32,000 bases of DNA from Candidatus Saccharimonadota bacterium (GTDB lineage: Archaea > Micrarchaeota > Micrarchaeia > Micrarchaeales > Micrarchaeaceae), in NCBI RefSeq assembly GCF_002214165.1, contig NZ_CP019964.1, positions 390,001 through 422,000 of the forward strand, in the 5' to 3' direction. The notes under the pieces were generated by a model that worked only from the letters and a program-made list of their open reading frames with translations, was not told where the DNA came from and ran no database searches. Positions 2,027 through 31,593 of the stretch are shown one piece after another (position 1 is the first letter of the stretch; the number at the start of each line of letters is the position of its first letter). A program made the position numbers and the translations under genes.

Positions 2027-2028
2027 AT

Positions 2029-2070: not shown

Positions 2071-2107
2071 TCTGAACCTTAAGTGCAGTTCTTGAATTAA
2101 ATGGCAA

Positions 2108-2117: not shown

Positions 2118-2149
2118 TATAAGAAGCTAAAAATCCTTATGGTGGATTT

Positions 2150-3169: not shown

Positions 3170-3249
3170 AGCGGTAAGGCATTATTCCATTTTCTTTGAT
3201 TTTTGTCTTAAACATTAAAATATTTGATTTTAAAAATTCGGATGACACT

Positions 3250-4023: not shown

Positions 4024-4083
4024 TTTTGTTTTAGAGGATCCTTTTACTATAAAGGAATAGGCATATTTATTTTAACTATCATA

Positions 4084-4599: not shown

Positions 4600-4610
4600 G
4601 AGGAAATAAC

Positions 4611-5339: not shown

Positions 5340-6191
5340 ATGCAATTTAAAGAATTAGGATATACATCTGAAGAATCGTATTTTGAGGATTTCTTTAGTA
5401 ATTTATTGTCTACTAATAGGACTTCTCAATTTTTTGTAAACTGGGAAAAAGTTTATAGAAATATAAAAACCCATATTGATGAAATATCCTTAATAAACGG
5501 TTTAATAAACATTCATGATTTGAATGAAAGGAAAAACCACTTAAAACAGATATTAGAGAAATATCCGAAAACCAGACTAATCTTGCCCCTTATGATAGCT
5601 ACTAGAGATAATAAATTGGATCTTTTGGTAATTAATGAAAAAGATGATATTACCTATTTGGATATAGATTTTGGCAATAGTGATATTGAAAAAATAATAA
5701 AATTTTGTGACGAAACCCATATAATAGAACTTTTGGGTAACATAAAAGATTTATATTCATATCTTTTAGGGGTAGAAGTCGGTACAGATACAAATGCAAG
5801 AAAGAATAGATCTGGATCCATGTTTGAAAAAATGGTATTAGAAGAGCTTAAAGCTAAAGGGTTAGATGTAAGAAAAGCAGATAAAAAGTACCAGATAGGA
5901 GGAAGGTTAAAGAAGCCAGATCTATTACTTTATAAAAACCAAAAAGAATTTGCAATTATAGAAGTTAACTTTTTCAATGAACTCGGTAGCAAGCCTTTGG
6001 AAACCATACAAAGCTTTATAAATTTACAGAAGGATATAAAGGCATTGGGGTTGAAATTTATACTAATAACCGATGGTCCAGCATGGAAAACTGGAAAAAG
6101 CGAACGTATAAAGGGATTTGAGCAGTTAGATTATCCACTTAATTTAACCCTTGCAGTAAAACTTATGCCAAGGTGGATAAATGGACAATGA
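5340..6191 (+). CDS. Type II restriction endonuclease, DpnII/MboI family (predicted GATC specificity)
   Basis: 283 aa. LLGVEVGTDTNARKNRSGSMFEKMV and IIEVNFFNELGSKPLET..ITDGPAWK match my recollection of the conserved DpnII-family core (not verified by alignment). The gene overlaps the downstream methyltransferase by 11 nt. Confidence 0.75.
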   Translation: MQFKELGYTSEESYFEDFFSNLLSTNRTSQFFVNWEKVYRNIKTHIDEISLINGLINIHDLNERKNHLKQILEKYPKTRLILPLMIATRDNKLDLLVINEKDDITYLDIDFGNSDIEKIIKFCDETHIIELLGNIKDLYSYLLGVEVGTDTNARKNRSGSMFEKMVLEELKAKGLDVRKADKKYQIGGRLKKPDLLLYKNQKEFAIIEVNFFNELGSKPLETIQSFINLQKDIKALGLKFILITDGPAWKTGKSERIKGFEQLDYPLNLTLAVKLMPRWINGQ

Positions 6192-7173
6192 CTATATAAA
6201 AATGCAAGAGATAACACAGGAGGACTACGAAAAATTTATAATTGATTATAAAAAAGTTACAATAGAAGATACTGAATTAGAGATAGGAGGAAATCATAAG
6301 ATAAATTCTTTGCAGCCCGAAGATTTTAAATTAGAAACAACTACAGTTTGGAGTTTCCCTAAAAGAGGAAAATGGGCTACTCATTATCTTAATGCCAAGT
6401 ATAGGGGGAATTGGGCTCCTCAAGTGGCCCGAAATCTAATTCTGAGATACTCAAAAGAAGGAGATACCGTTCTTGATGCGTTTGCAGGTTCTGGCACTAC
6501 TATAATAGAATGTAAGATTACAGATAGAAAGGGAATAGCTGTAGATATAAACAAGGAGGCTATAATGGTTGTTAGGGATAGGCTAAATTTCAACACCTTA
6601 AAAAGCGATTTTCAGGAGCAAAAAACCTTTTTGGGAGATGCAAGAAACCTAAATCTTATAAGTAATAATAGCATTGACCTTATTGCTGCCCACCCACCTT
6701 ATGCTAATATAATTTCTTATACTAAAAATTCAAATCACAAGTCTAATGGAGATTTATCAAAGGTATCCTCAATAGATGAATTTTGTTATCAGATGGGAAA
6801 TGTTGCAAGCGAGTTCTTTAGAGTTTTAAAGCAAGGAGGTTATTGCGCTATATTAATAGGAGATACAAGAAGACATAAGCATCAAGTTCCTATATCCTTT
6901 AGAGTGATGCAATCCTTTTTAGATAAAGGGTTTGTGTTAAAAGAGAGTATAATAAAAGTACAGCATAATACAAAGACCGCAGGGCTTTGGGCTAATCTAT
7001 CAGTAAAAAATAACTTTTTGTTATTAATGCATGAGCATCTATTTGTATTCAGAAAGCCATTTGAAACCGAAAAACAGAAAGATTTAATAGATAGCTCTAA
7101 GTGGTGGAAAAATAATGGTATAAATTATCCAAAGGATAAATTACAACCTGATGAAGCATTAGGGATAAAATAA
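6181..7173 (+). CDS. DNA methyltransferase (amino-MTase; motif I before motif IV)
   Basis: 330 aa. Motif I is VLDAFAGSGTT. Motif IV is DLIAAHPPYANI (HPPY at 6691-6702). It is translationally linked to the DpnII-like gene. Confidence 0.8.
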   Translation: MDNDYIKMQEITQEDYEKFIIDYKKVTIEDTELEIGGNHKINSLQPEDFKLETTTVWSFPKRGKWATHYLNAKYRGNWAPQVARNLILRYSKEGDTVLDAFAGSGTTIIECKITDRKGIAVDINKEAIMVVRDRLNFNTLKSDFQEQKTFLGDARNLNLISNNSIDLIAAHPPYANIISYTKNSNHKSNGDLSKVSSIDEFCYQMGNVASEFFRVLKQGGYCAILIGDTRRHKHQVPISFRVMQSFLDKGFVLKESIIKVQHNTKTAGLWANLSVKNNFLLLMHEHLFVFRKPFETEKQKDLIDSSKWWKNNGINYPKDKLQPDEALGIK

Positions 7174-10757: not shown

Positions 10758-10869
10758 AAATATTTAAATTATTTAAATTTAGTAGGGTTATTTTTAAATT
10801 AATTTAAAAATAGCAGGGTTATTTTAAAATAGATTTAAATATTACGTGTATTATATAATAATTGATATT

Positions 10870-12135
10870 ATGGCTGCTAAGGAAAGGTTCTTTTATAGGG
10901 ATATTGAGGATAGGATTGTCCCTTTTATAAGCAGAGATGAAATTATAATAATAAGAGGGCCAAGGCAAGCTGGAAAAACAACGCTGATGAAGCTAATTTC
11001 AGATAAAATAAAAGATAAAAAAGAATTTGTAAATTTTGATATACCAAGCAATAGGAGCAACATTTCCGAATCACCGATAGATTATGTGAGAAAAATTGCA
11101 GATGGCAATAAAATTACACTTTTCCTTGACGAAGTACAAAGGCTCGATAATGCCGGTGAAATATTAAAGATAATATACGATACGTTTAAAGGGGAGGTTA
11201 AGATATTTGCATCCGGATCGTCTTCGCTTGAAATACGGCAGAAAGTGCTTGGGTTTTTAGTTGGGAGAGCCATAATATTTGATCTCTATACATTCAGCTT
11301 TGGAGAATTTATCCGTTCAAAAGATACTGGATTATACAATATATTCAAGGAAAGAAATGACTCCCTAATAAACTTTATTGAGAATGGCGAAGAGGTATTG
11401 CACACAGCATTTTCAGAGGATCTACTTAAGATGTGGAAGGAATATGTTGTTTATGGAGGGTACCCAGAGGTTGTAAAAGCAGATAATTTTGACATGAAAA
11501 AATCCTTGCTCTTGAATCTGGTGAACCTTTACATAGAGAAGGACATAATATCATTTTTCAAAATTGAAGATACAAAGGAGTTTGAGAATTTTTTAAGGAT
11601 CCTTTCGTTCAACGATTCTCAGATGCTGACAATCTCCAATGTAGCCAATGATTCCGGGCTTAGTTTTTACAAGGCAAATTCGTATTTAGAGATAATAGAA
11701 AACACCTATATTGCAAGCAGGGTTTATCCATACTATAATAACATGTCCAGCTCAATAAAGAAAACCCCAAAGGTATATTTTTTTGATCTTGGGCTAAGGA
11801 ATGCAGTGCTAGATAACCTATTGCCTTACGAAAAAAGGGATGATATCGGAAAGTTAGCGGAAAACTTTGTTTTCGGAGAGCTTGTAAGACTGGGGAAAAA
11901 GGTTAGATACTGGAGGACAAAGGCTGGAGCCGAAATGGACTTTGTAATAGAATATAATAATGAGGTTATACCTGTAGAAGTAAAACTTGGTGGTTCCAAG
12001 GCAATAGGAAAAAGCTTTTACAGTTTCCTGGAGGTATATAAGCCTAAGATGGCATTGGTTATAACTCTGGATGAATTCTCAAAAAAGGAGGTTAATGGCA
12101 CTCTGATATACTATGTACCAATTTTCTACTTGTAA
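10870..12135 (+). CDS. AAA-type ATPase of the AAA_14/DUF4143 family with C-terminal PD-(D/E)xK-like module
   Basis: Walker A is GPRQAGKTT and Walker B is LFLDEVQ. The C-terminus reads GAEMDFVIEYNNEVIPVEVKLGG (D...EVK). I prefer ATG 10870 to the track's GTG 10846. Confidence 0.8.
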   Translation: MAAKERFFYRDIEDRIVPFISRDEIIIIRGPRQAGKTTLMKLISDKIKDKKEFVNFDIPSNRSNISESPIDYVRKIADGNKITLFLDEVQRLDNAGEILKIIYDTFKGEVKIFASGSSSLEIRQKVLGFLVGRAIIFDLYTFSFGEFIRSKDTGLYNIFKERNDSLINFIENGEEVLHTAFSEDLLKMWKEYVVYGGYPEVVKADNFDMKKSLLLNLVNLYIEKDIISFFKIEDTKEFENFLRILSFNDSQMLTISNVANDSGLSFYKANSYLEIIENTYIASRVYPYYNNMSSSIKKTPKVYFFDLGLRNAVLDNLLPYEKRDDIGKLAENFVFGELVRLGKKVRYWRTKAGAEMDFVIEYNNEVIPVEVKLGGSKAIGKSFYSFLEVYKPKMALVITLDEFSKKEVNGTLIYYVPIFYL

Positions 12136-12219
12136 ATAACTATGAAATTACGCTTCTTAATAAGATTAAACAAAACAAAAGTATATACAGATATAGATAT
12201 GTATATATTTGGTGTTAGT

Positions 12220-12408
12220 ATGGCTAAGCAAATAATGGTATCAAATGAGGTTTATAGATTATTATCAAAAAATAAAAAGAATAAAAGTTTCTCAGACGTT
12301 ATAAAAATGCTTTTAAAATCTAAAGAGCAAAAAAGGCCAAAGGCATCCTCTTTAGCAGGGTTGCTAAAAAACGATAAAAAGTTATTAAAACTAAAAAAAA
12401 AGCCATAG
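12220..12408 (+). CDS. vapB: VapB-like antitoxin (small, basic)
   Basis: MAKQIMVSNEVYRLLSKNKKNKSFSDVIKMLL... is typical of small archaeal antitoxins encoded upstream of PIN toxins. I moved the start to ATG 12220 because the track's first 26 aa look spurious. Confidence 0.55.
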   Translation: MAKQIMVSNEVYRLLSKNKKNKSFSDVIKMLLKSKEQKRPKASSLAGLLKNDKKLLKLKKKP

Positions 12409-12454
12409 AAAAAGAGAGAGAATAACGTAAGTAGAACTTTCGAAAAGTGGTAAT

Positions 12455-12832
12455 TTGGTAATTCTAGATACAAGTATAATTATAGATTTATTATATGGAG
12501 TCGAAAGTATTGAGAAAAAAATAAAGCAATACGAGGAGGATCATGAAGAAATGAATATAACATCTATAAAGGCTTATGAATTACTAAGGCACCCCAAAGA
12601 GATTAAGCGTACTACAGCAAATTCTATATTAAAAGTCTTTTCAGTGTATAGTTTTGATAAGAGGGCATCAGAGAAGGCAGCTGATGTATATAGAGAACTA
12701 ATGGCTAAAGGTGAACAAATAAATGAAAATGATGTCTTAATCATTGGAATTGCCATTTCTAAAGGTGAAAAGCTTTTAACAAGAGATAATAAATTTGCTT
12801 TTATTGATGATTCTAAAATAGAGATAGTATAA
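12455..12832 (+). CDS. vapC: PIN-domain ribonuclease toxin VapC
   Basis: 125 aa. (M)VILDTSIIIDLL supplies the first acidic residue, with ..LLTRDNKF.. near the C-terminus. The start is TTG at 12455, immediately after an in-frame TAA. Confidence 0.8.
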   Translation: MVILDTSIIIDLLYGVESIEKKIKQYEEDHEEMNITSIKAYELLRHPKEIKRTTANSILKVFSVYSFDKRASEKAADVYRELMAKGEQINENDVLIIGIAISKGEKLLTRDNKFAFIDDSKIEIV

Positions 12833-13045: not shown

Positions 13046-14047
13046 ATGAAACTGAATTTTGATCCAAAAAGCAATATTAGAAGTTCTGACTATAGTTTAA
13101 TTAAGCTAAATAAAGTAAATAAGATAAAAGATCTTCTAAAAGTACGATCAATAGTTAAAAATTGGCCAACAGTTCTTGCTTTCAGAACAGGGTTAAAGAA
13201 TGCAAATTTTATAATGGAGCTACGTAATGGAATAAAAGTTAAAATAACCAATCCAAATGATTATTTTTCGTGGTGGGAAACAATACAGGCACAAAATTCC
13301 ATTCTCCAACAAGCAGGTCTAGATAAAGCAATACAGATTGATAAGAATAAAAAGATAATAAAATTTAAATTTAAAAGCAAACCTGTGCATTTATTTTATG
13401 ATTCAGATAAGCAACTTAGCAACACTATAGGTATGGTGAGAGAGCAATTTTTAGAGGAGCAATATAAATGGCTAAATGTTAAAGGTAAGGATGTAATTGA
13501 TATAGGGGCCAATATAGGTGATAGTGCTATATATTTTGCATTGAATGGGGCAAAGCATGTTTATGCTTTCGAGCCATATCCGTATTCATATAAAGTAGCT
13601 AGTAATAATATAAAATTAAATAAATTAAATAAGAGGATAACGCTACTTAATGAAGGCTGCAGTGATAAAGAGGGCGGTATTAATATAAAAACGGATTACC
13701 AAAACTTTGGAGGTACTGATTTAAAGGAATTTAATAAGGAAACTAAAATAAATTTAACAACACTAAAAGGTATTATAAATAGATTTAATATTAAATCTCC
13801 AGCTATTTTAAAAATTGATTGTGAAGGCTGCGAATATAGTGTTTTGCTCAATGCCAATAATTCAGATCTTAAAAAATTCGAGCAGATACAAATTGAATAT
13901 CATTATGGATATTTGAATCTAAAGAAAAAATTAATTGATGCAGGATTTGAAGTAAAAAATAACAATCCAAAACAGACCTTTAATAAGTTAGCGGATAATA
14001 AGGAACTCTTTATTGGCCTTATTTATGCAAAAAAGAATTCAGAATGA
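13046..14047 (+). CDS. FkbM-family SAM-dependent methyltransferase with unassigned ~140-aa N-terminal extension
   Basis: Contains GKDVIDIGANIGDSAIYFALNGAKHVYAFEP (motif I region typical of the FkbM family) and ..ILKIDCEGCEY... Very AT-rich. Confidence 0.7.
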   Translation: MKLNFDPKSNIRSSDYSLIKLNKVNKIKDLLKVRSIVKNWPTVLAFRTGLKNANFIMELRNGIKVKITNPNDYFSWWETIQAQNSILQQAGLDKAIQIDKNKKIIKFKFKSKPVHLFYDSDKQLSNTIGMVREQFLEEQYKWLNVKGKDVIDIGANIGDSAIYFALNGAKHVYAFEPYPYSYKVASNNIKLNKLNKRITLLNEGCSDKEGGINIKTDYQNFGGTDLKEFNKETKINLTTLKGIINRFNIKSPAILKIDCEGCEYSVLLNANNSDLKKFEQIQIEYHYGYLNLKKKLIDAGFEVKNNNPKQTFNKLADNKELFIGLIYAKKNSE

Positions 14048-14856
14048 TAATATAAGATATTATTAGAATAACTAAAATATTATTGGAATTTAATAGTTTA
14101 TCATGTTTAAAATGCTTAAACCATTATAAAACTAAAATATAGTTAGAATAACTAATAATATTTAAGAATTATTATAAAATAAAAATTTAGGTTCAAAATA
14201 TTCCATATATATGAAAAATCTGTAAAGCAATTGATCTAAATTTAAGATTCCATAAAAATGAAATAAAAATTAAAGCAAACAAAAGTTGTTCTTTCAAATT
14301 TATGGAAAATATGCCATTTTGGTTAAACAAGTCATATTGTTTGCTAAAAGTACCTGCAAAAATGGGATCCTTCCTCGAGAAGCAGTTTTCGGCTCAAAAT
14401 TATGAAAAATATTTTGTGAATTCCATAATAATGAAATTTAAATAATTGCCTTGGCCTGCATAAAATATATCAACGATAATTTAAAAAATCCATTTTCGAG
14501 GGAAAAGATTTGCGTTTAAATCGCCTATATCAAACGATTTAAACCATTACTATATAATTAATCATTAAGCTTAGCAAAGCCTTTAAAATCAAAATAAATG
14601 CAAAGTTTATTAGTTTCTAATATAATATTAGATTAACTAATAAGTTATTAGAATTATATATTATTTAATTTAATAAATTGGATGTCTTTTTTATTAAATG
14701 AATTTATTTTAATAGGGTTTTTAAAGATATATAATTAAATCTTTTAAAAAATTATATTTTATCTACTTTAGGATTTATCAGTAAGCTTTAATTAAGTAAC
14801 CACCTTATCGTTTTATTTGAATAATTAAAGATAGAAAATTCTTATTAATATAGAAA

Positions 14857-15741
14857 TTATAAAGGAGGAATTTTTTTGTTTGAAAATAAAATTTCATACA
14901 CTACTCTTTTATGTGATGAAATTAGATATTGCTTGGGCAAATAAATATTTTGGTTAGATAAAACTTTATCATTAAATACTCCTTTATTAGAGTATAAATT
15001 TTTAATAAATTCATTATTATCATAAGATACAAGCCAAGGGCTAATAATCTTATTAGAAAGTAAAGTAGCAAGTTTTTTATGATCTTCCCGGTTAAAATAA
15101 AAACTATATAAATCTTTTCCAGCTTTAAAATATGGTGGATCTATATACAATAAGCTATTGCTATGTTTATTAGAAAAATTTTTTATAAACCTAAGTCCAT
15201 CTAAATTTGACAAAACTACCTGTTTTTTAAATTTATATAAATATTTTATTTTATTAACTATATTACTATCTCTAAATCTACAATATATTTTGTATTTAGA
15301 TTCTTGGTTTCTACCTCCAAGTGGCCCTCCTTTAATTATTCCTGAATAAGAAGTTCTATTTAAAAATAAAAAAGTGGATGCATATTTGAGCATGTCTTTA
15401 TCTCCATATTTTACTTTTGAATTCATAAATATTTTATAAAATTTTTTAAATTCATAATATTTTTCTATTGTAATATTTGTCGACATTTCTTCTATTTTTT
15501 CTATAAACTCCTGATTCAAATTAAATACTGAATACCAAAATGCATAAATCATAAAATCCTTATCATTGATGTAAGCTTTATTAACAATACCCATTTCTAA
15601 TAAACTAATAGATATGGAAGCACTTCCACCATATGGTTCTGCAATACTTCTATCCAATTTATGGTAAGTTATAAAATTTTCTACATAATTAACCAGCCAT
15701 CTTTTATTACCTGGAAACCTTAACGGTGTTAAATTCTTCAT
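14857..15741 (-). CDS. D12-class (Dam-family) N6-adenine DNA methyltransferase
   Basis: 294 aa. Contains LRFPGNKRWL, motif I EPYGGSASISI, FLFLNRTSYSGI and motif IV LLYIDPPYF. It lies 31 nt downstream of the ParB-like gene on the same strand. Confidence 0.85.
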   Translation of the reverse strand: MKNLTPLRFPGNKRWLVNYVENFITYHKLDRSIAEPYGGSASISISLLEMGIVNKAYINDKDFMIYAFWYSVFNLNQEFIEKIEEMSTNITIEKYYEFKKFYKIFMNSKVKYGDKDMLKYASTFLFLNRTSYSGIIKGGPLGGRNQESKYKIYCRFRDSNIVNKIKYLYKFKKQVVLSNLDGLRFIKNFSNKHSNSLLYIDPPYFKAGKDLYSFYFNREDHKKLATLLSNKIISPWLVSYDNNEFIKNLYSNKGVFNDKVLSNQNIYLPKQYLISSHKRVVYEILFSNKKIPPL

Positions 15742-15772
15742 ATTATTGTATCCCTTAAAAAATATACAGTAT

Positions 15773-17290
15773 TTAATCTTCTTTAAGTAATATCTTTTGT
15801 ATTAATATTCTTACACTATCTGCTATTAATTGAACATGTTCAGGTGAAGGATTTATAAAGGATTCATGTACCATATCATTTAAATATTTACGTATCCCAT
15901 CTTTACTCTGCTGTATTTTTTCCATAGCCTCTTTGGCATTTTTTCTATACGCTTCATTTGTAAATAATTTTTGAACATTATTTATACTATATTTAACAAT
16001 ATCATCTAAATTATATAATCTAGCAATACCCCTCAAAGCATTTGATTTTAAAAAATCTTTCCATAATCCCTTATCTTCAATCCTATAAATTAAAGAATTT
16101 TCTATTAAGGTTCTTGTTAAAATTAATGTGGCTAGTGGATAATTCTTAACATCTATACTCGATATCTCCTTTGCTATATGTTCTAGTTTACTATTATTTA
16201 AACTCTTGCTAACAGTAAGATTACTAAAATATTTTGGTTGGCTTTCAGGTTTCTTTCCTTTTTCTGGCAATTTTTTATTAAGTAATTCAATATTATTGTT
16301 ATTATCTCTTTTAATTTTTAAATCCATAAGTTGCCCTGATCTTTGTCCAATTTTAGTTTGATTATATGCTTCAATCCATTTTTCAATAAGCTCTTTAATT
16401 TGTGTTTTATTTGTACGAGTAGTTATAGTTGGATCCTTACCTAAAAACATTGAACGTGTTAATTCAATCATAACATATCTAAATTCATTTTTATCCATTT
16501 TAGTTTGGAGGTTAAATTCATTATCAAAATTTATACTTAACATCTCCTGGATTTCAGATGACATATGGTAAGGAAGAACTGAAACCTTAAGATTATTATT
16601 AGATAATTTATACCTTTCTTGATCTGTCCAATCTGATAGATCTAATATATATCTAATAAAAGAGTAGTTTTTTAGATTATTCTCAATTAATTTAGGGTCT
16701 TCACCCAATATTTTACTCATTTTAGTGATATTTTTAATCTTCTGGAATTGGATGTAATCTCTTCTCCATTTCGAAATGTAAGACCATTTCTTTATCTGAT
16801 ACTGTGTATGTCTTGCAGTTATAATCTTTTGAATTGATTCTCTGTTTGGTCCAATTATAACATTAAAATATTCTATTTTATCTAAATTGATATCTGAATT
16901 AAGTTCTTTAATTTGCAATTGGTATTTACTTGGTGCAAGATCTGGATTAAGCATGCATTTTGCAGCGCATACTCTCCTATTCCCTTCAAGAACTTTGTAT
17001 TTATTATTCTCCTCTTTAATTACTATAATATTTTCACTAGGATAGAAACCAGAATTCTCAATTATAGATTCTATTAACTCTATTATCTCTTCCTGTTTAA
17101 AAAGTTCCCGTATTATATCACTTTGGCTTGCATCAGGTTTAAGATTAAGTCTCGGATTTTCAGGATCTAATAGAATATCTGAGGTTTTTACTTTTTTCCT
17201 TGACCATTCGTTATTATCAAAATCTGGGGTTTCAATTTCTTTCACTTCATCTTCATTAAGTTCCTTATTCTGATCCATATTATTTACCAA
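15773..17290 (-). CDS. ParB/Srx-fold N-terminal domain protein with ~370-aa unassigned helical remainder
   Basis: 505 aa. ..SDILLDPENPRLN.. and ..NKYKVLEGNRRVCAAKCM.. (GxRR box) are the two signature boxes of ParB N-terminal domains. TTG at 17290, with ATG at 17278 as an alternative start. Confidence 0.7.
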   Translation of the reverse strand: MVNNMDQNKELNEDEVKEIETPDFDNNEWSRKKVKTSDILLDPENPRLNLKPDASQSDIIRELFKQEEIIELIESIIENSGFYPSENIIVIKEENNKYKVLEGNRRVCAAKCMLNPDLAPSKYQLQIKELNSDINLDKIEYFNVIIGPNRESIQKIITARHTQYQIKKWSYISKWRRDYIQFQKIKNITKMSKILGEDPKLIENNLKNYSFIRYILDLSDWTDQERYKLSNNNLKVSVLPYHMSSEIQEMLSINFDNEFNLQTKMDKNEFRYVMIELTRSMFLGKDPTITTRTNKTQIKELIEKWIEAYNQTKIGQRSGQLMDLKIKRDNNNNIELLNKKLPEKGKKPESQPKYFSNLTVSKSLNNSKLEHIAKEISSIDVKNYPLATLILTRTLIENSLIYRIEDKGLWKDFLKSNALRGIARLYNLDDIVKYSINNVQKLFTNEAYRKNAKEAMEKIQQSKDGIRKYLNDMVHESFINPSPEHVQLIADSVRILIQKILLKED

Positions 17291-17859
17291 GTACCTTTTA
17301 ATTTTTATAAATATAAAAATGTTTGGTTATTTTTGACTTTGGGACAAAAGTTATTGATCATCTTTTACAGTCAAATAAAATATTTTACTATACTATTTTG
17401 GACCATATACTTTTACTTTATTACTTAATTTTATTAGGGTTCTACTAAAAAACCATTAACTCATCTTATGATAATTTTTATTTTATGTGACATTTATTTA
17501 TTAATGGCTGATTACAGTTGACTTTTGTCTTAAAGTCTTTCTTTTCATTTAATATTTAATAAAAGACACTTTTCAATTTCAAATTTAATATTAGTTAAAT
17601 ATACTGAAATGATTTTTAGGGATAACTATAATTTTCTAATTTGATTTATCCCCAACCTAAGGAACATATATTTTTATATAAAACATTAAATAATTTATAT
17701 CGTATATAATATTCAAAAAGCTTATTATCTTAATAATAACTTATTCAATGTTCCTAATTATTGTAAATTTTATACCTTGATAAATTTCTTGTAATTAGTT
17801 GGGTTAAAAATCTAGAACCTCTAATTATATATGGATTAAAAGTTAAAAGGTGCTATAAA

Positions 17860-18717
17860 TTGGAAAAAGTCATCGAAAAGGTAATACCCGGAAAGAGTAC
17901 GCATGATGGTGCAGGAGTAAAGCTGTTCAGGGTATTCTCAAATATACCTGATCTTACTGATCCTTTCCTTCTGCTAGACAACTTTGGCTCATCAGATATA
18001 AAAGATTACATAGAAGGTTTCCCCTGGCATCCGCACAGGGGAATAGAGACTGTAACTTATGTGATAAAAGGCAAGGTGGACCACAGGGACAGCGAGGATA
18101 ACCAAGGAACCATATATCCTGGAGACCTACAGTGGATGAGTGCTGGAAGCGGCATATTCCACGAGGAAATGCCAAAATATATCGAGGAGAAAAATAAGAT
18201 ATATCCAGACATGGTCGGATTCCAGTTATGGATAAACCTGCCTGCAAACAGGAAGATGTCAACTCCTGTATACAGATCAATAAAAGGCAAAGATGTGCCT
18301 TCAATAAGATTGGGAAGCAGTGAGATAAAGCTTATAGCCGGAAGGTTTGGAAATGACTATGGCGCATATGACGGAGGCACGCAAGATGTCACCTATATGC
18401 ACGTAAAGCTTAATGATGACAGGATAGCTTTCAGCATAAAGGAATTATACAGGGCTATAATATACGTGTTTGAAGGATATGCAAAAGTTGGCAACAGCGT
18501 ATACAGCAAAGGCCAAGCTATTATATTCAGCGAAGCTGGAAACTCCATATCTGTAAGCGGCAAAGGGGAGCTGATGTTCATGAGCGGAAGGCCATTGAAA
18601 GAGCCTGTTGCATGGTACGGCCCCATAGTGATGAATAATTACGATCAGATAAAGCAGGCACTCCTTGAATTGCAGCATAATGCATTTGTAAAGGACAGGA
18701 AGCCATTATTCGAATAA
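17860..18717 (+). CDS. Pirin family protein
   Basis: 285 aa. FPWHPHRGIETVTYVIKG and ..LQWMSAGSGIFHEE.. are cupin/pirin signatures. The start is TTG. G+C is about 48% on a sampled line. Confidence 0.9.
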   Translation: MEKVIEKVIPGKSTHDGAGVKLFRVFSNIPDLTDPFLLLDNFGSSDIKDYIEGFPWHPHRGIETVTYVIKGKVDHRDSEDNQGTIYPGDLQWMSAGSGIFHEEMPKYIEEKNKIYPDMVGFQLWINLPANRKMSTPVYRSIKGKDVPSIRLGSSEIKLIAGRFGNDYGAYDGGTQDVTYMHVKLNDDRIAFSIKELYRAIIYVFEGYAKVGNSVYSKGQAIIFSEAGNSISVSGKGELMFMSGRPLKEPVAWYGPIVMNNYDQIKQALLELQHNAFVKDRKPLFE

Positions 18718-18750: not shown

Positions 18751-19353
18751 TCATTGAAGTTCCTCTAGCATTTTCTCAAACTTTTCGTTATACTCATTAA
18801 TCATTTCCTTATAATCTATATTAAACATTTTATAATACTCTTCATTGGATACCGCAATGCTTGGTGCTAATGTTCCAGATTTCAAATTTAATCTTTTATA
18901 AAATTCTTTTATACTCTCCTCTGAAGGACCCTCTACCTCCATCTTGTAAGGCAACTTAGGCCATTTATCTATAACTATATCCAGATTATTTTCTTTATAA
19001 CGATAATCAATTCTGCTTTTTTCTATATAACTATACTTTGCATCAGGCAACATTTTAAGTATTATTTTAGCGGTTGTTATGAAATCGCTCGTTTCTACTT
19101 CATACTCTAATCTTTTGTTTATATCTGTTCCGTACTGCTCCTTCAAAGTAAGGGTCGTTTTCTTTCCATCGCTCCTTACACGTGCCCATTTGGTATAATA
19201 TTCTTCGCTTTCTATGTTTCCTCTATTTTCTATTTCAATGTTTAAAATCTTGTAATTGTAAGTCCCTACATAATTGGCTTCTAATTCTTGCAGTCTTTCT
19301 TTAGCCTCTTCTAAATTTATATTGGTGACACTTATCTCAATTTCGTGTAGCAT
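18751..19353 (-). CDS. CYTH-domain protein (CyaB/triphosphate tunnel metalloenzyme-like), tentative
   Basis: 200 aa. There is an N-terminal HEIEISV (ExExK-like start), alternating charged beta-strand pattern, and ..YKMEVEGPSEESIKEFYKRLNL... The size fits class IV cyclase/CYTH proteins. The call rests on motifs only. Confidence 0.45.
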   Translation of the reverse strand: MLHEIEISVTNINLEEAKERLQELEANYVGTYNYKILNIEIENRGNIESEEYYTKWARVRSDGKKTTLTLKEQYGTDINKRLEYEVETSDFITTAKIILKMLPDAKYSYIEKSRIDYRYKENNLDIVIDKWPKLPYKMEVEGPSEESIKEFYKRLNLKSGTLAPSIAVSNEEYYKMFNIDYKEMINEYNEKFEKMLEELQ

Positions 19354-19750: not shown

Positions 19751-20569
19751 TTAATTCATTTGTAAAGCGGATTTCGAAAACTTAAATTCAACACTTTTAT
19801 TATTTATGTTGCCTTTTAAAGTTGGCATTTTTCCATTATTTTCTTTAATTCCTTTTTCCATATCATTTATCTCTTTCAATGAGATATAAATATCAAAGTC
19901 AATTTGTTTAAAATTATTTGATATTATCTTATAGTAAATTTTTGTAACTTTATTGGGATCATTGTTATAATCATTATCAAATTTAAAATAATTAGTAATT
20001 TGATATGACAAATTTTTCACTGGATAAAAAATATTATTTTCTTTAATTGTTCTCACTTTTGCAATAACAAAAGCATCAAATCTTAATATTCCATTATCCT
20101 GTAAAATATCTGAGCTAACCGAATCAAAACTTATGCCATTGCCTAATATTGAACATCTTGGATTGGTATAATTATAATCTGGTGATTCTCTTAAATTTTT
20201 TGTGAATTTTTGGATTTTATCCCCAAAAAATTCAATTTTATCAATTATTATTTGACAATTTGTAACATTTTCTTTTTTACTATAATTTTTGATACTAAAA
20301 ACCATTAAATATGGAGTGGTTGCACCTTCTATGTCAAAATTTTTACATGGAGAATAAAAATAGTATGATTCTAAATTAATTTTATCATTTTTAATAGAAA
20401 TTATGAATGAATAAAAGCCTAGAAGGATAGCTACTAAGCTAATTAGGATACTTATAATGCTATTGTTAAATAATTTAATCCATACAGCAACCGCTATAAA
20501 TATAATAAGTATCGGCATAATTATAATTTCTAAATTAATTAAATTATCCTTATTTACATATTTTCCCAT
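19751..20569 (-). CDS. Hypothetical membrane protein (two N-terminal TM helices + ~190-aa soluble domain)
   Basis: 272 aa. The TM segments are IIIMPILIIFIAVAVWIKLF and IISILISLVAILLGFYSFIISI. The rest is Asn/Lys/Ile-rich with no motif I recognise. It lies 85 nt downstream of res and 18 nt upstream of DUF167. Confidence 0.5.
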   Translation of the reverse strand: MGKYVNKDNLINLEIIIMPILIIFIAVAVWIKLFNNSIISILISLVAILLGFYSFIISIKNDKINLESYYFYSPCKNFDIEGATTPYLMVFSIKNYSKKENVTNCQIIIDKIEFFGDKIQKFTKNLRESPDYNYTNPRCSILGNGISFDSVSSDILQDNGILRFDAFVIAKVRTIKENNIFYPVKNLSYQITNYFKFDNDYNNDPNKVTKIYYKIISNNFKQIDFDIYISLKEINDMEKGIKENNGKMPTLKGNINNKSVEFKFSKSALQMN

Positions 20570-20654: not shown

Positions 20655-23207
20655 TTATTTAAGATCTAAGTCTTTAGCATATTTAGATGTAAAGAATTGA
20701 ATCATATTTTCAAAATTGTCAAAATGATATTTATCAAATCCATTTTCATTAATCCTAACATATACCCATTTGTCTCCGGTAACTCTTTCAGCATCTTCAC
20801 ACCATAATATAGCTCTCTTATCCTTAAATTTTACATCTATATCCTCTTCCCCTTTTGTCTCTGCAATAACATACTTATTCTGCATTTTTATAATAAAATC
20901 AGGAATATAATGCCTTAGGTTTCCTTCAGAATCCCTATACTCTATAGAAAATCCTATTTTTTGAACAATTTTTGAAAATGCAATAACGTCTTCTGTAGAA
21001 TCTAGAAAACGCGAAAAATTGACCTCAAGATTATTATCACAGGGCACATAATTAAAAATGCATTTATTAGCTTGATATACATCTTTAGTCCATGGAAAAG
21101 GTGATGTTTCTGATATTAAAATCCTATCAGATTTATCTACCTCTCTATTAATAAACGCAAGATTCTTCATGCTTTCTCCAAATGCTTTTATTATTTTTTC
21201 TTCTACTTCTGGCTGGCTTATCTGAAATAAAACTCTTGGGTCATTTATATTAACCTCTTGATCAAACAATTTCTTTTCTATATACTCTTTTACAATTGGG
21301 TATAAATCAGCAAACATATTGGTAAGTTTGATTTCATTTAATATTTTACCTGTGTAATATGCTATTACACTTTTTACATCTTGTGGCACCGGTAAATCCC
21401 AACTTCTCTCAACTTGAACTGCTCCAGTTACCATATCAAAAGCTTTATAATTTGTTTTGAAAATCTTATTTTCAAGTTTTATAGAAAGTGAAGGTATTTT
21501 ATCTAGTATACCTTCGTTAATTTCAAATTCTCTAACTATAATTGATGGAGTAAGAATTGGAATTTCTATATCTAAGTTCTTTTTATCTAAATCAACAGAT
21601 ATTGCTACTATATTAATTGGATTTTCTAATTTTGTAGTTCCAAATTTTATATTTTCATCCTTTTCTAATTCCTCTATAATTTGCATAAGACCTGGGGATC
21701 CTATAACTTCTAATATATTTATAAAGTCCTTTATGCTAGCATTTTCATCTGGAAACATCTTTCTAAGACCTCTTCCTATTACTTGCTCTGGAAGTACATT
21801 TCTTTCTGATGTATAAGATCTTAAACCAACTATAACATTTACATTACGTACATCCCAACCTTCATTTAGCATCATAGTACTTACTATAACTCTATAATTG
21901 TTATTATCGCTATCAATAGATTGGGCAGATTTTCTTGCCTCTTCGATATCAGATTTTGCTACTTCTCCAGTACTGTCTGTATGAATTAATAGAACTTTTT
22001 TAGAGAATTGAGGTAATGTTTCAAGATATTCCTTTAATTGATCCGCTTGTTTATTATCGGGACATTGGAAAAATAATATTGGCTTCTTATTTAGTTTTGC
22101 TAATGCCTCATTATATTCCTGCCATCTTCTTATACCTGCATCAATCCATGCCTTATAACGTTCAACAACATTAGTTGATGTTACCTCAGTAGCATTTTGA
22201 ACTATACCTTTCAAAGGCCTTTTTACTATATTCATTTCTATAGCTTCCTTTAATGTGAAATCAACTATTAGCCAAGGAAATAGAACTCCATTTTCAGCTC
22301 TTGGAGTAGCTGAAAAGTCTAGTTCCATATTAAAGCCTTTTCCATACTCTGACTTTAAAGCTCTATGGAGATCTATTAGTATCTGTTTCCATTTCTTTTC
22401 GTAATTATATATATGGTGGGCTTCATCCTTTAGTATCATTATATTAGGTATTTTCTCAAGCACTTCTTTTATTCTGTTATCTTGGGCAATGTTTGTTCTA
22501 TTAACTTCCTTTAAATCTAAAACTTTATCAATAAATTCATCTGCTTCCTTTTTCCTATTAGCTTTATCCTGTAGTTGCTGAACATTTGTAAGAAATAGCA
22601 CTGAATCGGGTATATCATTTATAGGATCTTCTTTTAAGATAACCTTAATATTAAATTCATCTATCCATTCGGGTGGAATTAATGGTATTTCATGAAAAAT
22701 TTTACCATTTTCGTAATCTCTTTTAAGACGATCATAGATGACATTTTTTTCACCTGCAATCAAAAGAAATTTTGATGTATAATCATCATTACTTTCAAAC
22801 TTATGATTAAAGTATTGCCATACAATAGATAATGCCATAACATACGTTTTTCCAGAACCTGTAGCCATTTTAAATCCATAGAGTGGATAGATGTCTGTAC
22901 TTGGATCAAATACTTGTGGTTTATCCCCAAAATTTGCCATCAGATCTAAAAACTTCCTTATTTTCATAACTTCGTAAATATAGATTAAAGTTTCAATAGA
23001 TTCTCTTTGGGCATACCAAAATTCAAATTTTTCATTGTTTATTATATGATCCTCATTAAACCAGAAATTTAGAAGTCTTTTAGTAGTATTTGTTACATTT
23101 GGATATCCAGAATCTCTCCATACTTTAATAGCGGGTCTTAATTTATTTACTAGATACGCTTTGCTTTCATCTCTGTCCTGTGGTAATAAGATATCTGATG
23201 GGTTCAT
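20655..23207 (-). CDS. res: Type III restriction enzyme, Res subunit (helicase-nuclease)
   Basis: 850 aa. Helicase motif I is MATGSGKTY and motif II is LKDEAHH. The C-terminal nuclease motif is YIPDFIIKMQNKYVIAETKG (PD...ExK). The ATG overlaps the mod stop (ATGA, 23204-23207). Confidence 0.9.
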   Translation of the reverse strand: MNPSDILLPQDRDESKAYLVNKLRPAIKVWRDSGYPNVTNTTKRLLNFWFNEDHIINNEKFEFWYAQRESIETLIYIYEVMKIRKFLDLMANFGDKPQVFDPSTDIYPLYGFKMATGSGKTYVMALSIVWQYFNHKFESNDDYTSKFLLIAGEKNVIYDRLKRDYENGKIFHEIPLIPPEWIDEFNIKVILKEDPINDIPDSVLFLTNVQQLQDKANRKKEADEFIDKVLDLKEVNRTNIAQDNRIKEVLEKIPNIMILKDEAHHIYNYEKKWKQILIDLHRALKSEYGKGFNMELDFSATPRAENGVLFPWLIVDFTLKEAIEMNIVKRPLKGIVQNATEVTSTNVVERYKAWIDAGIRRWQEYNEALAKLNKKPILFFQCPDNKQADQLKEYLETLPQFSKKVLLIHTDSTGEVAKSDIEEARKSAQSIDSDNNNYRVIVSTMMLNEGWDVRNVNVIVGLRSYTSERNVLPEQVIGRGLRKMFPDENASIKDFINILEVIGSPGLMQIIEELEKDENIKFGTTKLENPINIVAISVDLDKKNLDIEIPILTPSIIVREFEINEGILDKIPSLSIKLENKIFKTNYKAFDMVTGAVQVERSWDLPVPQDVKSVIAYYTGKILNEIKLTNMFADLYPIVKEYIEKKLFDQEVNINDPRVLFQISQPEVEEKIIKAFGESMKNLAFINREVDKSDRILISETSPFPWTKDVYQANKCIFNYVPCDNNLEVNFSRFLDSTEDVIAFSKIVQKIGFSIEYRDSEGNLRHYIPDFIIKMQNKYVIAETKGEEDIDVKFKDKRAILWCEDAERVTGDKWVYVRINENGFDKYHFDNFENMIQFFTSKYAKDLDLK

Positions 23208-25246
23208 ATTTTCACCTTTATAATTTTATTGGTATCATTACCAAAGACATCCACAACTTTTACCATTACTTGGTATTCTCCTTTTTCTTCGTATTTGTGG
23301 TTTGCTTCATATTCGACTTTTAGATCTTTCTTTGTTCTGTAGCTTTGCCATTGATTATGGAATGTATCCCCTTTAAAATCCCAATCAACAGCCCAATAGT
23401 CAATAAGTTGTCTTGAATCTTTTAAATTTTTAAGTGCTTCTAGAACATCTGGGCTAGGATTAAGATTGAAATCTTCGATTTTCAAAGTTAACTCTTTATC
23501 CGATATAACCTTTGAAATTCCTAAGTAAGCAAGTTCATTGAATTTTACTGATGGAATAAGATTTTTCTTAATTACTTGGTCAGGTATCTTTAAAAGTTTA
23601 AGATCAAAGTCACTATCTGCTAAAACAGATTTTAACTCATTCACATTTGGTATCTGAATCAATCTAAGGTCTAATCCTTCTTTTTCTGCTAATTTTTTTG
23701 CTAAATCATTAACTTCATAGTTCCATTCCCATCCTAGAACATCTGCTTCCTTAAAGTTGTTATTTATGCACTCTGTGATAAAATTCCTGATCTCGTCCAT
23801 TGAAACTGGTGAATTACTTGAACCTATGTGAACAGCTCTTGGACCTTTCGAAGCATGTATATAGCGGAATCCATTGAGAGGATTTGCCTCATACAGTTTA
23901 ATCATAAATGATAAGTAATCCTGCGGATTTTCCTTCCAGTATGCAAGCTCATAGTTTCCAATGTTCCAGAGCTCAAATGGTCTTGCAGGTTTGCCATATT
24001 TGTCTTTCTTCTCATCCATTAAATCCTTTGAATTATGAATATCAAGTAACCTCTTTCTTGTAACCTGAATAGCATATTTAGATAGATCTGAGCCTATCCA
24101 TCTTCTTCCTAATTTTTCTGCAACTGCAAGAGTTGTGCCAGAACCGCAGAAGAAGTCTGCTACTAAATCTCCAGGACTAGAGGAAGATAGAATTATCCTT
24201 TTAAGTAACGACTCGGGCTTTTGAGTGTCGAATTGTAAAAATTCTTGCGATTGGCCTTGTAGCGGATTTACTTCTTTATCCACCCAGATGTCCGAAACTA
24301 TTTGACCATGTGTATCTTTTAAGTATACCTTTAATCTATATCCTCCGTTTTTTGTTTTGTAGATTTTTCCTTCATTCCAGAACATTTCTAAATTTTCTTG
24401 AGAATATAACCAAGGCGCGGTTATGCCCCTAAATTCAAACACTTTGCGTCCAACTGTCCTTTGTGTCCCTCCAGCAATCAGTGCAGTAGTTTGGTATGGA
24501 CCTTTCCCGTCACCGTCATCATAAACAAAACTCCTCAGATAATCTTCATTAGGGGTTTTATAAACAGGATTAATATTGATTAATTGTTTATTTTTACCAT
24601 AAATGAAAATCATATCATATTGATTCCCAAACCCAATTGATTGAGCTTTAGGGCTGTTTGTTTTTCTCCACACAATTTGATTAATGTAATTATCATATCC
24701 AAAAATCTCATCCATCATAACCTTAACGTAATGTCCGATGTGTTCATCTAGATGGATCCATATTGTGCCATTTTCTACTAATAACTCTTTCATTAAGGAT
24801 AACCTGTTATACATGTACTTCAAGTATGATGCGATTCCCCCACTCCAGGTATCATTATAAGCCCTCTTTTCAATTATTGATGGTTCTTTTTCAATTTCTG
24901 AATCATCAACTTTGGTTTTAAAGGAAAAATTTGAACCTGTGTAGAATGGTGGGTCTATATAAATCAGATTTATCTTTCCCGCCCATCCCTGTTTTAAGAG
25001 TGAAGACATCACGAGCTTGTTATCTCCCCAGATAAGTTTATTCCTCCAGTCCTTAGGATAGTTTTCTGGCCATTTATCCTCAGGAAATAGGGATGCATTT
25101 ACACCACCCTTGGATCTTGGTTTGTTGACTGTTTCAACTACCTGAAACGGTAGATTTGGGTAATCGATCGGAGTCATATGGCTAATTTCCATTTTTTTAT
25201 ACTTATCATGCCATAGTAGCTCCACATATTTCTCGTCCTTTTCCAT
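23204..25246 (-). CDS. mod: Type III restriction-modification methyltransferase, Mod subunit
   Basis: 680 aa. Motif IV (LIYIDPPFYTGSNF) precedes motif I (VADFFCGSGTT). This beta-class order is typical of type III Mod proteins. Confidence 0.9.
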   Translation of the reverse strand: MEKDEKYVELLWHDKYKKMEISHMTPIDYPNLPFQVVETVNKPRSKGGVNASLFPEDKWPENYPKDWRNKLIWGDNKLVMSSLLKQGWAGKINLIYIDPPFYTGSNFSFKTKVDDSEIEKEPSIIEKRAYNDTWSGGIASYLKYMYNRLSLMKELLVENGTIWIHLDEHIGHYVKVMMDEIFGYDNYINQIVWRKTNSPKAQSIGFGNQYDMIFIYGKNKQLININPVYKTPNEDYLRSFVYDDGDGKGPYQTTALIAGGTQRTVGRKVFEFRGITAPWLYSQENLEMFWNEGKIYKTKNGGYRLKVYLKDTHGQIVSDIWVDKEVNPLQGQSQEFLQFDTQKPESLLKRIILSSSSPGDLVADFFCGSGTTLAVAEKLGRRWIGSDLSKYAIQVTRKRLLDIHNSKDLMDEKKDKYGKPARPFELWNIGNYELAYWKENPQDYLSFMIKLYEANPLNGFRYIHASKGPRAVHIGSSNSPVSMDEIRNFITECINNNFKEADVLGWEWNYEVNDLAKKLAEKEGLDLRLIQIPNVNELKSVLADSDFDLKLLKIPDQVIKKNLIPSVKFNELAYLGISKVISDKELTLKIEDFNLNPSPDVLEALKNLKDSRQLIDYWAVDWDFKGDTFHNQWQSYRTKKDLKVEYEANHKYEEKGEYQVMVKVVDVFGNDTNKIIKVKI

Positions 25247-25248
25247 AT

Positions 25249-25554
<306 letters not shown>

Positions 25555-25782: not shown

Positions 25783-26244
25783 ATGGAAGATTGTATACCT
25801 AATAGATATAGTGAATTATATAAAAGTTTAAATAATGAAATAAATAATATTATAGAGTACAGTTTAAAAACTCAAGATCAAGAATTGGATTGTATAAATA
25901 AAGAGATTCAGAATGCTGAAAATATGGAAGATTTAAATTTGGTTTTTGATAATTTAAAATTATTTAGATTAAAACTCATAAAGGATGTTGAACGAAAGCT
26001 AAGACAAGAAAAAGCAAAAGAAATAGACTATGAAATGCACTATGAAATGTTTTCATATAGAAAAATAAGTGCTCTATTACTATCATTGATAGAAACCAAT
26101 GTAGATAAGGCTATTGAATCATTATTTAAAATAGATACCAACGTAATAGGATCGGTCGAAAAAATTGCAAAAAAGCTAGGAGCTAAAGGATTTTCAATTA
26201 CACTAGGTTTACCCCTTAATTTAACAGTTACATTAAATTACTAA
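25783..26244 (+). CDS. Hypothetical protein, helical/coiled-coil-like
   Basis: 153 aa with ATG start and no motif I recognise. It is the only sizeable ORF between the two 82-bp repeat copies. Confidence 0.5.
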   Translation: MEDCIPNRYSELYKSLNNEINNIIEYSLKTQDQELDCINKEIQNAENMEDLNLVFDNLKLFRLKLIKDVERKLRQEKAKEIDYEMHYEMFSYRKISALLLSLIETNVDKAIESLFKIDTNVIGSVEKIAKKLGAKGFSITLGLPLNLTVTLNY

Positions 26245-26540
26245 GTTAAATTAACATAAATAGACAAAATTAATAAAATTTACTAAGTAATAAAAAATAA
26301 ACATTTTGTTATTCAGTTCATCTAATAACCTGATAGATAAAGTCATCGTAAAAAAGGATTCTGATAAACTTATAAGTACTGAACTGTTTTTCTTTACAAG
26401 CGCTAAACACTCGTGCAATACAATATTTGCATCTATTATAAGCTCAAGATCATATTACCTAAACTATATAAAGTTTTTTCAAAGAAATCTTTATATTGAG
26501 TTTTAACTTCTTCAAACGTATTTATAATAACAAATATATC

Positions 26541-26622
26541 CACCAATAGCCTTTCTTATATAGCGTTGAGCTAAAACGCATTTTTCATAAGGTATTATTT
26601 AAATAAACTTAAATAGATTGTC
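26541..26622. repeat. Direct repeat copy 2 (82 bp)
   Basis: CACCAATAGCCTTTCTTATATAGCGTTGAGCTAAAACGCATTTTTCATAAGGTATTATTTAAATAAACTTAAATAGATTGTC. Here the duplicated minus-strand start gives only MRFSSTLYKKGYWWIYLLL* (19 codons). Confidence 0.9.
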
Positions 26623-26726
26623 CCGTTGTACCATTTTTGTATACCTGCTCAATGAGCATTATTAAAAAATTTTTATTAAAAGAAACATTTAAATTCTTTT
26701 TAATTATTTTATATAAATGCGTTTAA

Positions 26727-27020
26727 ATGAATGGATTAAAAGAGAGAACCCAAGAGATAATTTTTAATAAAGACGGTATCATTGTAACCGAAACTGTAGA
26801 TGATCTAGTTAATAAAACTAACGGGATCAGACTAACAAGGTATGATTCACTTACTGAGTTATATACCAAATTTCAGGGACCAATAGTATTAAAATCTATA
26901 AAGATTGAGATGTCAGCTGATGTATTAATGTCTTTGACTTTGGTAGTTTACAATGAAGATGATTGTTATGATGAAAATCCAAAAATGGTTCTCTATTTTG
27001 AAAGAGCAGATAAAAATTAA
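26727..27020 (+). CDS. Hypothetical small protein
   Basis: 97 aa with ATG start, 104 nt downstream of repeat copy 2. No motif I recognise. Confidence 0.45.
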   Translation: MNGLKERTQEIIFNKDGIIVTETVDDLVNKTNGIRLTRYDSLTELYTKFQGPIVLKSIKIEMSADVLMSLTLVVYNEDDCYDENPKMVLYFERADKN

Positions 27021-27286
27021 GAATTCGTATTAGATTGTAAAGAGCATAAAACAAAGGATTAATATAGAATCCTTGAAAAACCTGCGAATTTCTTATAAAA
27101 GAAGGAAAACTAACTCAAAATCTCATACCAATAGAATTAGAGCATTCTAGAGTAATAGAATTTATATTGAGATATTAATAGTTATGAAATAGCCATTAAA
27201 ATTCCATATTAGTTCTTTAAAAGTTTGAATATCCTGAAAGCATAGGTAAAAGAATAACTATTTATATATGATGATAATAATATAAA

Positions 27287-28334: not shown

Positions 28335-28676
28335 GAAAATTAACTTTTAATTATTTTATCTGTATTTTTAATATTTATGCTAAGTAAATCCTATAAAATT
28401 ATCTTTATGACTGTCCAAGAATGATTGGTTTCAGCTTTAAACATCCTTTTTCTTTCCTCATCTGAATCATGAACTAATATATCTCTATCCATTCTGAACT
28501 TCATTAAGATATTTTAATATATCCTCTTTATCCAATATACGATTTATACGTTTTAATAAGTCTACCAATAACTATGGATTTTAGTATCAGAAAATAAACA
28601 TTTAAGAATTCAACAACTTAAGAATTATAATAATAATAACTAATAAGAATATGATTATATATAAATTAATAAAAAG

Positions 28677-31590: not shown

Positions 31591-31593
31591 TAA

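Follow-up and report, generated by a model that had tools for sequence, protein, structure and literature searches.

A probable PD-λ-5 gene pair, encoding a ParB-like protein and a DNA methyltransferase, in an archaeal defence island

The gene pair and its family

The stretch of archaeal DNA analysed here, 32,000 nucleotides (nt) long and referred to below as the window, carries at positions 14857-17290 two intact minus-strand genes, A and B, that very probably form a member of PD-λ-5, a family of anti-phage systems first obtained from Escherichia coli. The open reading frame (ORF) listing of the window separates the two genes by 31 nt (15742-15772), in agreement with an earlier note on this DNA that had described co-directional minus-strand genes at this distance. 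Gene A encodes a protein with a ParB-type N-terminal module and a C-terminal helical bundle, and gene B encodes an adenine methyltransferase. The features of the pair are as follows.

14857-17290, minus strand: probable PD-λ-5 pair
17279-17330, minus strand: putative archaeal promoter region ahead of the ATG at 17278, containing a TATA-like element (a reading of the sequence)
15773-17278, minus strand: PD-λ-5 gene A, ParB-like/HEPN-like protein of 501 amino acids (aa) (ORF; public gene call; PADLOC PD-Lambda-5_A, E 2.2e-34)
15773-15775, minus strand: stop codon of gene A
15742-15772, minus strand: A-B intergenic spacer, 31 nt (ORF coordinates)
14857-15741, minus strand: gene B, D12-class (Dam-family) N6-adenine DNA methyltransferase of 294 aa, ATG start (Pfam MethyltransfD12, E 1.3e-16; PADLOC PD-Lambda-5_B, E 1e-72)
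15697-15717, minus strand: FPGNKRW motif of gene B (translation)
15616-15639, minus strand: EPYGGSAS motif of gene B (translation)
15130-15141, minus strand: DPPY motif of gene B (translation)

As a mechanical ORF, gene A begins at a TTG codon and spans 15773-17290, which gives the 505 aa reported in the earlier note; the ATG at 17278 is the likelier start, shortens the protein to 501 aa, is used in public gene calls and has the TATA-like sequence TTTTTATATTTATAAAAA directly upstream. The 31-nt spacing is taken to mean that A and B would be co-transcribed, and the A-then-B order is kept, with short gaps or overlaps, across homologous loci. The pair is A+T-rich, as the note had said, with its figure of 22% G+C now corrected: the pair has 25.7% (A 27.0%, B 23.6%) and the spacers 20%, compared with 42% in the housekeeping DNA at 1-5120. 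The cassette was probably acquired horizontally.

Both proteins are recognised by PADLOC profiles of a single system. Protein A matches 20 PD-Lambda-5_A sub-models (best E 2.2e-34), several of them end to end; residues 31-500, for example, align to positions 4-463 of a 466-position model and residues 25-489 to positions 5-452 of one with 473. Protein B matches PD-Lambda-5_B at E 1e-72 and 243 bits, above every generic MTase_II model, and has a clear Pfam MethyltransfD12 match with intact DPPY and FxGxG-type motifs, which bears out its description in the earlier note as a complete D12-class enzyme for N6-methyladenine (m6A). The motifs listed there (LLDPENPRL, LEGNRRVCAAK, FPGNKRW, EPYGGSAS and IDPPYF) are all present in the translations. 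The orthologous pair of Thermoplasma gives the same PADLOC PD-Lambda-5 result. Chance is far exceeded, since these are long ORFs in 25% G+C DNA with hidden Markov model (HMM) E values of 1e-34 and 1e-72. From these profile matches we assign the pair, with high confidence, to the PD-λ-5 family as an archaeal member.

PD-λ-5 was found by functional selection from E. coli ECOR7; the prototype, listed as 'ParB/HEPN, methyltransferase', gave E. coli protection from nine of the 10 phages used in the tests, and its cloning required a Δmrr host (Vassallo et al. 2022, Nat Microbiol), a need which implies that its methylase is active. The archaeal pair resembles the ECOR7 operon in length (2434 bp here, 2461 bp there), in gene order, in having an A protein of about 500 aa with a ParB N-domain and a D12-class B protein, and in its mobile or defence context. 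It differs in its host, a DPANN archaeon, with putative archaeal promoter features and 25.7% G+C, and in its location: it lies in a chromosomal island, in a window where no prophage genes were seen, whereas the prototype resides in a prophage. The locus is therefore a known kind of system, already catalogued, and what is new is its archaeal (DPANN) member; we found no discussion of archaeal PD-λ-5 members in the literature consulted. The earlier note, which had proposed a candidate non-canonical system, overstated the novelty in this respect, and ParB-HEPN fusions and ParB/methylase/HEPN operons were also described in 2013 (Anantharaman et al. 2013, Biol Direct).

The pair is flanked by non-coding spacers of 809 bp (14048-14856) and 569 bp (17291-17859), as had been noted earlier, and neither holds an ORF of more than 47 aa. 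A degraded third gene in these spacers was considered and rejected: neighbouring genes from archaeal homologous loci, used as tblastn queries, gave no match, nor did blastn with the spacers. The window has no match to Rfam families or tRNAs, and a search for att-like direct repeats bounding the cassette gave only short AT-rich matches of doubtful meaning. A scan for bacterial promoters and terminators found 34 sites against 34.6 expected and is uninformative, with the count at expectation and an archaeal host. Downstream of the methylase, the gene-free stretch of 809 bp contains three copies (74-82% identical, 14053-14655) of a 38-nt AT-rich direct repeat, which may be chance matches in DNA of 20% G+C.

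Homologues and the coupling to a methyltransferase

We scanned GTDB, one genome per species, with a profile of the 13 closest sequences. This yielded 240 stretches with a relative, of which the best 80 loci, all bacterial, were analysed and classed with local HMMs into a long form (at least 430 aa) and a short form, typically of about 365 aa, in which the C-terminal bundle is not detectable. A D12 methyltransferase is adjacent in 35 of 35 long-form loci, 8 of which are copies of one near-identical actinobacterial element and hence not independent, and in 3 of 45 short-form loci. The closest named homologue of protein A, from Thermoplasma sp. Kam2015, has 48% identity, and a D12 methyltransferase follows A immediately in this organism, in a Dehalococcoides integrative element, in Schinkia, in a 6.5-Mb bacterial genome, in metagenomic (ENA) contigs with close homologues and in Marinobacter phage AS1. 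The coupling held in every other long-form locus inspected that reaches far enough downstream. In the loci examined, then, the link between C-terminal domain and methylase has no exception. Co-occurrence of the pair across genomes had been put forward in the earlier note as a check, and its suggestion of a module like those of restriction-modification (R-M), with a ParB-fold protein in place of the endonuclease or sensor, gains support both from this coupling and from the PD-λ-5 profiles. Strict methylase dependence of the long form is as predicted for an R-M-like, potentially self-toxic effector.

The same coupling would be expected of a selfish addiction module, in which loss of the methylase would lead to post-segregational killing of the R-M type, with protein A attacking the demethylated host genome and so stabilising the island or element, and defence would be a side effect at most. 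Homologues do occur in mobile contexts beside integrases, transposases and resolvases, and the cassette is compositionally foreign. Set against this, the cloned E. coli prototype gives broad phage protection and the neighbourhood of the archaeal pair is rich in defence genes; moreover, the two roles are compatible, as is well established for type II R-M systems. We consider addiction as the primary role improbable and favor a model in which the pair acts in defence.

The short forms belong elsewhere. They consist of the ParB N-domain and the helical region, match PD-Lambda-5_A only over model positions of about 1-160, and in many cases adjoin genes for PbeC/DndD-like and DndE/DndH-like ATPases, neighbours that identify them as the ParB-like component of Pbe/Dnd-type systems. 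A partner of about 336 aa downstream of the short-form gene is conserved in 35 of 38 methylase-free loci (for example L028, L031 and L033). As their match is restricted to the first part of the model, short forms could cause false PD-λ-5 calls.

Several features of individual homologous loci deserve mention. A segment of about 7.6 kb with a long-form A gene and a convergent D12 methylase gene is 99.8% identical in species representatives of six actinobacterial lineages (L037, L038, L040, L042, L043 and L044), namely Microlunatus, Haematomicrobium, a Nanopelagicales metagenome-assembled genome, Nocardia, Brevibacterium and Microbacterium; it recurs at 98% identity in L073 and 96% in L053. Such near-identity indicates either that the segment moved between genera very recently or that the assemblies share a contaminant. 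Archaeal homologous loci have extra genes after the pair (L004 3018-3902, L011 7828-8373, L012 4560-5309): the Thermoplasma locus has an extra ORF of 294 aa with no family match, and two metagenomic contigs have a second, convergent D12 methyltransferase gene. Nothing comparable was found in the window spacer. Among phage records searched by tblastn, proteins of about 400 aa from P2-like coliphages (Wphi gp98) share only the ParB N-domain with the protein A family and are not of the long form. In phage Wphi (L013) gp98 adjoins gp96 and a cytosine methylase, apparently as a separate kind of ParB-plus-methylase cassette within a part of the genome that varies among these phages.

Architecture of protein A and a proposed mechanism

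An AlphaFold model of protein A, built from a 22-sequence alignment, has a mean predicted local distance difference test score (pLDDT) of 82.7 and falls into three parts: a structured region (residues ~25-310), a disordered linker (311-345) and a C-terminal helical bundle (346-501). The approximately 370 aa in which the earlier note recognised no domain thus resolve into a helical region of the ParB/Noc/KorB type, the linker and the bundle. The features of the protein are listed here with their positions in the window.

16349-17206, minus strand: N-terminal module, residues ~25-310, comprising a ParB/Srx N-domain and then a helical region that resembles ParB-type DNA-binding regions (pLDDT mostly 81-97)
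17150-17158, minus strand: NPR motif, residues 41-43, within LLDPENPRL; N41 and R43 invariant (translation; 33-member alignment)
16973-16987, minus strand: EGNRR box, residues 98-102, which aligns to GERR of canonical ParB (translation)
16784-16810, minus strand: invariant H157 and W165, in the segment after the ParB N-domain (alignments)
16244-16348, minus strand: predicted disordered Lys/Asn-rich linker, residues 311-345 (pLDDT below 50)
15776-16243, minus strand: C-terminal helical bundle, residues 346-501, HEPN-like (separate model; pLDDT 83.9, predicted template modelling score 0.82)

By sequence the ParB relationship of the N-terminal module is visible in a TIGR00180 match (E 7.7e-6) and in a sub-threshold match to Pfam ParB_N (E 8.7e-4; 19.7 bits against a curated cut-off of 26.3). 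Searches of PDB sequences with the full protein and with a profile of its C-terminal part gave marginal ParB matches and noise, with nothing relevant to HEPN. In structure the relationship is clearer: Foldseek aligns the model to ParB with bound cytidine diphosphate (CDP; 6sdk), Noc (7ol9) and KorB (8qa9) at E values of 3e-4 to 5e-3 over 220-290 columns, a length that takes in both the N-domain and the helical DNA-binding region. The ParB-family matches include CDP- or CTPγS-bound ParB, with probability 1.0 at E 3e-4. Among 33 diverse long-form members, N41, R43, E98-G99-N100-R101-R102, H157, W165 and H471 are invariant, and D38, R146, R389 and E393 are kept in at least 90%; the linker varies in length and is a gap-rich part of the alignment. 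A HMMER alignment to Myxococcus xanthus ParB (7bnr) sets VLEGNRR opposite IIAGERR, so that the Glu position of GERR is occupied by Asn, which is invariant in the same 33 members. In canonical ParB this Glu is catalytic and is required for hydrolysis of cytidine triphosphate (CTP).

Protein A resembles the CTP-dependent ParB, Noc and KorB clamps, which are its best structural matches over the N-domain and helical region and whose boxes align with its NPR and GxRR motifs. It differs from them in having GNRR in place of GERR, in the lack of ParA, parS and the ParB C-terminal dimerisation domain, and in its fusion to a HEPN-like bundle and coupling to a methylase. These differences bear on the proposal, raised in the earlier note, that the pair was left stranded by a plasmid or virus and consists of a partition protein of the ParB kind with an anti-restriction methylase. 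The ParB-fold N-domain and helix-turn-helix-like region are what such a remnant would contain, and relatives reside on temperate phages and integrative elements. However, no ParA Walker-A motif (KGGxxK[ST]) occurs in the window, whichever frame is read, or in the 4 kb to either side of 28 non-redundant long-form loci, no ParA Pfam family appears in the window or in the neighbour gene tables of homologous loci, and no parS-like or centromere-like repeat array was found next to the pair, in keeping with what the note itself had seen nearby. The C-terminal bundle, furthermore, is not the ParB dimerisation domain, and strict pairing with a methylase, chromosomal sites included, is unexpected for partition genes. 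A partition remnant is effectively excluded by these observations.

The C-terminal bundle is a probable, though unproven, HEPN-like domain. In the definition of Anantharaman et al. (2013), the Rx4-6H motif of HEPN domains closes helix 3, where the loop leading to helix 4 begins. The predicted bundle is all-α with up-down helices and agrees with HEPN topology, with the conserved acidic E393 in helix 2 and a variable, gap-rich insert between helices 2 and 3. In the predicted structure the near-invariant R389-x3-E393 lies in the long second helix, and secondary structure assignment by DSSP together with the alignments places the invariant H471 where the penultimate helix ends, preceded by Asn at -4 (N-x3-H). 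HEPN proteins lead the weak Foldseek matches: the PaREP1-type 2q00_B has the highest TM-score (0.48/0.60), the toxins 7ae6_B and 7bxo_G are listed, and a 'HEPN domain-containing protein' ranks first among viral models (BFVD, E 1.6). For the prototype, HHpred gave DUF4145 at 35.6% for residues 388-418 and HEPN_RiboL-PSP at 8% for residues 469-498 (Vassallo et al. 2022), so that weak HEPN-clan signals there (~390-420 and ~470-500) fall at the positions of R389/E393 and H471 here. At E ≤ 1e-3 the domain defines 2151 protein clusters, a number that falls to 774 at E ≤ 1e-10, and it sits at the C-terminus in all of the best 150 clusters. We looked for standalone or otherwise fused copies among these 150 and rejected the candidates; the short matches are N-terminally truncated PD-λ-5A fragments.

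Two further readings concern how protein A would act. It could be a DNA-binding regulator of the KorB or C-protein kind, serving an epigenetic or orphan Dam-type methylase, and not an effector: KorB, a transcriptional repressor, and other ParB proteins that bind DNA are among its best structural matches, and neither Pfam nor Foldseek detected a classical nuclease fold in protein A. An additional C-terminal domain that is conserved and contains an invariant His would, however, be superfluous in a regulator; the prototype defends against phages; and the short-form relatives, which have only the N-terminal ParB module, are Dnd/Pbe-like defence components rather than regulators. We judge this reading very unlikely. 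A classical type II R-M system was rejected as well: the methyltransferase is present, but gene A lacks PD-(D/E)xK, HNH, GIY-YIG or PLD domains and neither flank contains an ORF exceeding the 47 aa given above. A methylation-dependent, type IV-like reading was dropped, since a system to which a methylase is obligately linked would then have its own host as target.

We envision a scenario in which the pair works as an archaeal PD-λ-5, a two-gene, methylation-linked anti-virus system in which B marks self and A senses and acts; we consider this likely. Gene B, by class a D12-type m6A methyltransferase, would mark host DNA as self. Protein A would serve as both sensor and effector, its ParB/Srx fold and helical region engaging DNA. 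On unmethylated incoming DNA it may nick or cleave through the ParB-fold domain, switch on the HEPN-like domain, or do both, and His-dependent RNA cleavage would then stop the infected cell. ParB/Srx proteins are known from the literature to nick DNA under nucleotide control. The R-M-like logic of self and non-self in this scenario seems reasonably probable to us, and the particular roles given to the ParB and HEPN-like domains are tentative. More speculatively, and doubtful at present, PD-λ-5A might be no conventional nuclease but a nucleotide-gated, ParB-type DNA clamp whose GNRR box binds but barely hydrolyses nucleoside triphosphate (NTP), which loads on or slides along DNA that lacks the m6A of its partner and which allosterically activates a fused, Arg-less HEPN-type RNase.

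A number of points weigh against this scenario. Defence has been demonstrated for the E. coli prototype only, and the archaeal pair is known here from its genes; the link to the ECOR7 proteins (RCQ13837.1 and RCQ13838.1) is made through PADLOC profiles only, and no E. coli members were among the 34 proteins returned by a 33-sequence profile search. We found no mechanistic study of PD-λ-5 in the literature consulted. Hydrolysis of NTP as in canonical ParB cannot be assumed, because the box is GNRR and not GERR. The HEPN assignment has its own difficulties: the Arg of Rx4-6H is replaced by a hydrophobic residue (the PaREP1 HEPN family likewise lacks this Arg), Foldseek found no significant structural neighbour of the bundle (best E 0.78 in PDB and 1.6 in BFVD), Pfam HEPN-clan matches are stray (HEPN_Swt1 in 1 of 16 members at E 0.008; DUF4145 in 2 of 34 at E ~0.1, precisely 0.095), and the published HHpred probabilities for the prototype are equally weak. 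The HEPN label repeated in the literature thus rests on weak evidence.

Other known systems share elements of this proposal. In EcoprrI-PrrC, the guard of a type I R-M system is PrrC, a separate ABC-ATPase/HEPN protein. Both share the idea that a HEPN RNase stands behind a system based on DNA methylation, with the difference that here all but the methylase lies on one polypeptide and there is no classical restriction nuclease. DndB, the Pbe/Dnd-like ParB proteins, the DUF262 domains of GmrSD and SspE, and DpdB likewise place a ParB-fold module within DNA-modification-based immunity. In those systems the modification is phosphorothioate or deazaguanine, or modified DNA is what they sense, and the effectors are others, such as HNH or DndFGH. 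Here a Dam-class enzyme would produce m6A, and the putative effector domain is carried on the ParB-like protein itself. The Saro_3948-type ParB-HEPN fusions and MAE_28990-type operons combine the same set of ParB fold, DNA methylase and HEPN and were read as R-M coupled to an RNase (Anantharaman et al. 2013). In protein A the canonical Arg of Rx4-6H is absent, and an (L)N-x3-H motif is accompanied by a conserved R-x3-E in an earlier helix.

The surrounding island and its host

The window is a mosaic defence island with three methylation-based systems. Besides the PD-λ-5 pair it contains the following genes.

5340-6191, plus strand: DpnII-family endonuclease (Pfam E 1e-59)
6181-7173, plus strand: N6_N4 methylase (family match)
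10846-12135: PDC-S01-type ATPase with AAA_14 and DUF4143 domains (PADLOC E 6.5e-83)
12142-12832: VapBC (VapB and VapC, PIN), after the PDC-S01-type ATPase
13046-14047: FkbM methyltransferase
17860-18717, plus strand: pirin gene, 42.7% G+C
20655-25246, minus strand: type III res/mod genes

The DpnII-family endonuclease and N6_N4 methyltransferase genes overlap by 11 nt and form a complete type II R-M system (5340-7173, plus strand). On the minus strand a type III-like R-M system (20655-25554) comprises a res protein of 850 aa, with ResIII/helicase and endonuclease domains and a BPTD_3080-family match, and a mod protein of 680 aa; upstream of its genes lies a 101-aa ORF with no family match. A 31-nt tandem repeat of 2.6 copies (10763-10842) precedes the PDC-S01-type ATPase. 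Six ORFs of 123-377 aa in a block of 25.9% G+C (25783-31977) have no Pfam match, and the same is true of the ORFs at 18751-19353 and 19751-20569. Because the pirin gene sits between low-G+C blocks, the island looks like a mosaic of separate insertions and not a single acquired segment.

The source is very probably the DPANN archaeon 'Ca. Mancarchaeum acidiphilum' Mia14. The Mia14 paper reports a chromosome of 39.4% G+C, small islands that hold genes for toxin-antitoxin and type III R-M systems, and transfer of genes between Mia14 and its co-cultured Thermoplasmatales host. Thermoplasma, which supplies the closest named relative of protein A, belongs to the Thermoplasmatales, the same order as this host.

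To a specialist the pair will be unsurprising, and we regard it as a moderately useful comparative data point. The comparison defines a small set of invariant residues for PD-λ-5A (NPR, EGNRR, H157, W165 and H471). With the cassette beside two other methylation-based systems, the island is a compact natural case of stacked R-M-type immunity. If the clamp model of PD-λ-5A were true, the 'CTP-switch' of ParB would be an innate-immune sensor common to bacteria, their phages, and DPANN and Thermoplasmatales archaea. The locus itself extends an experimentally validated, mechanistically unsolved defence system into archaea, in a DPANN symbiont with a genome of about 1 Mb.

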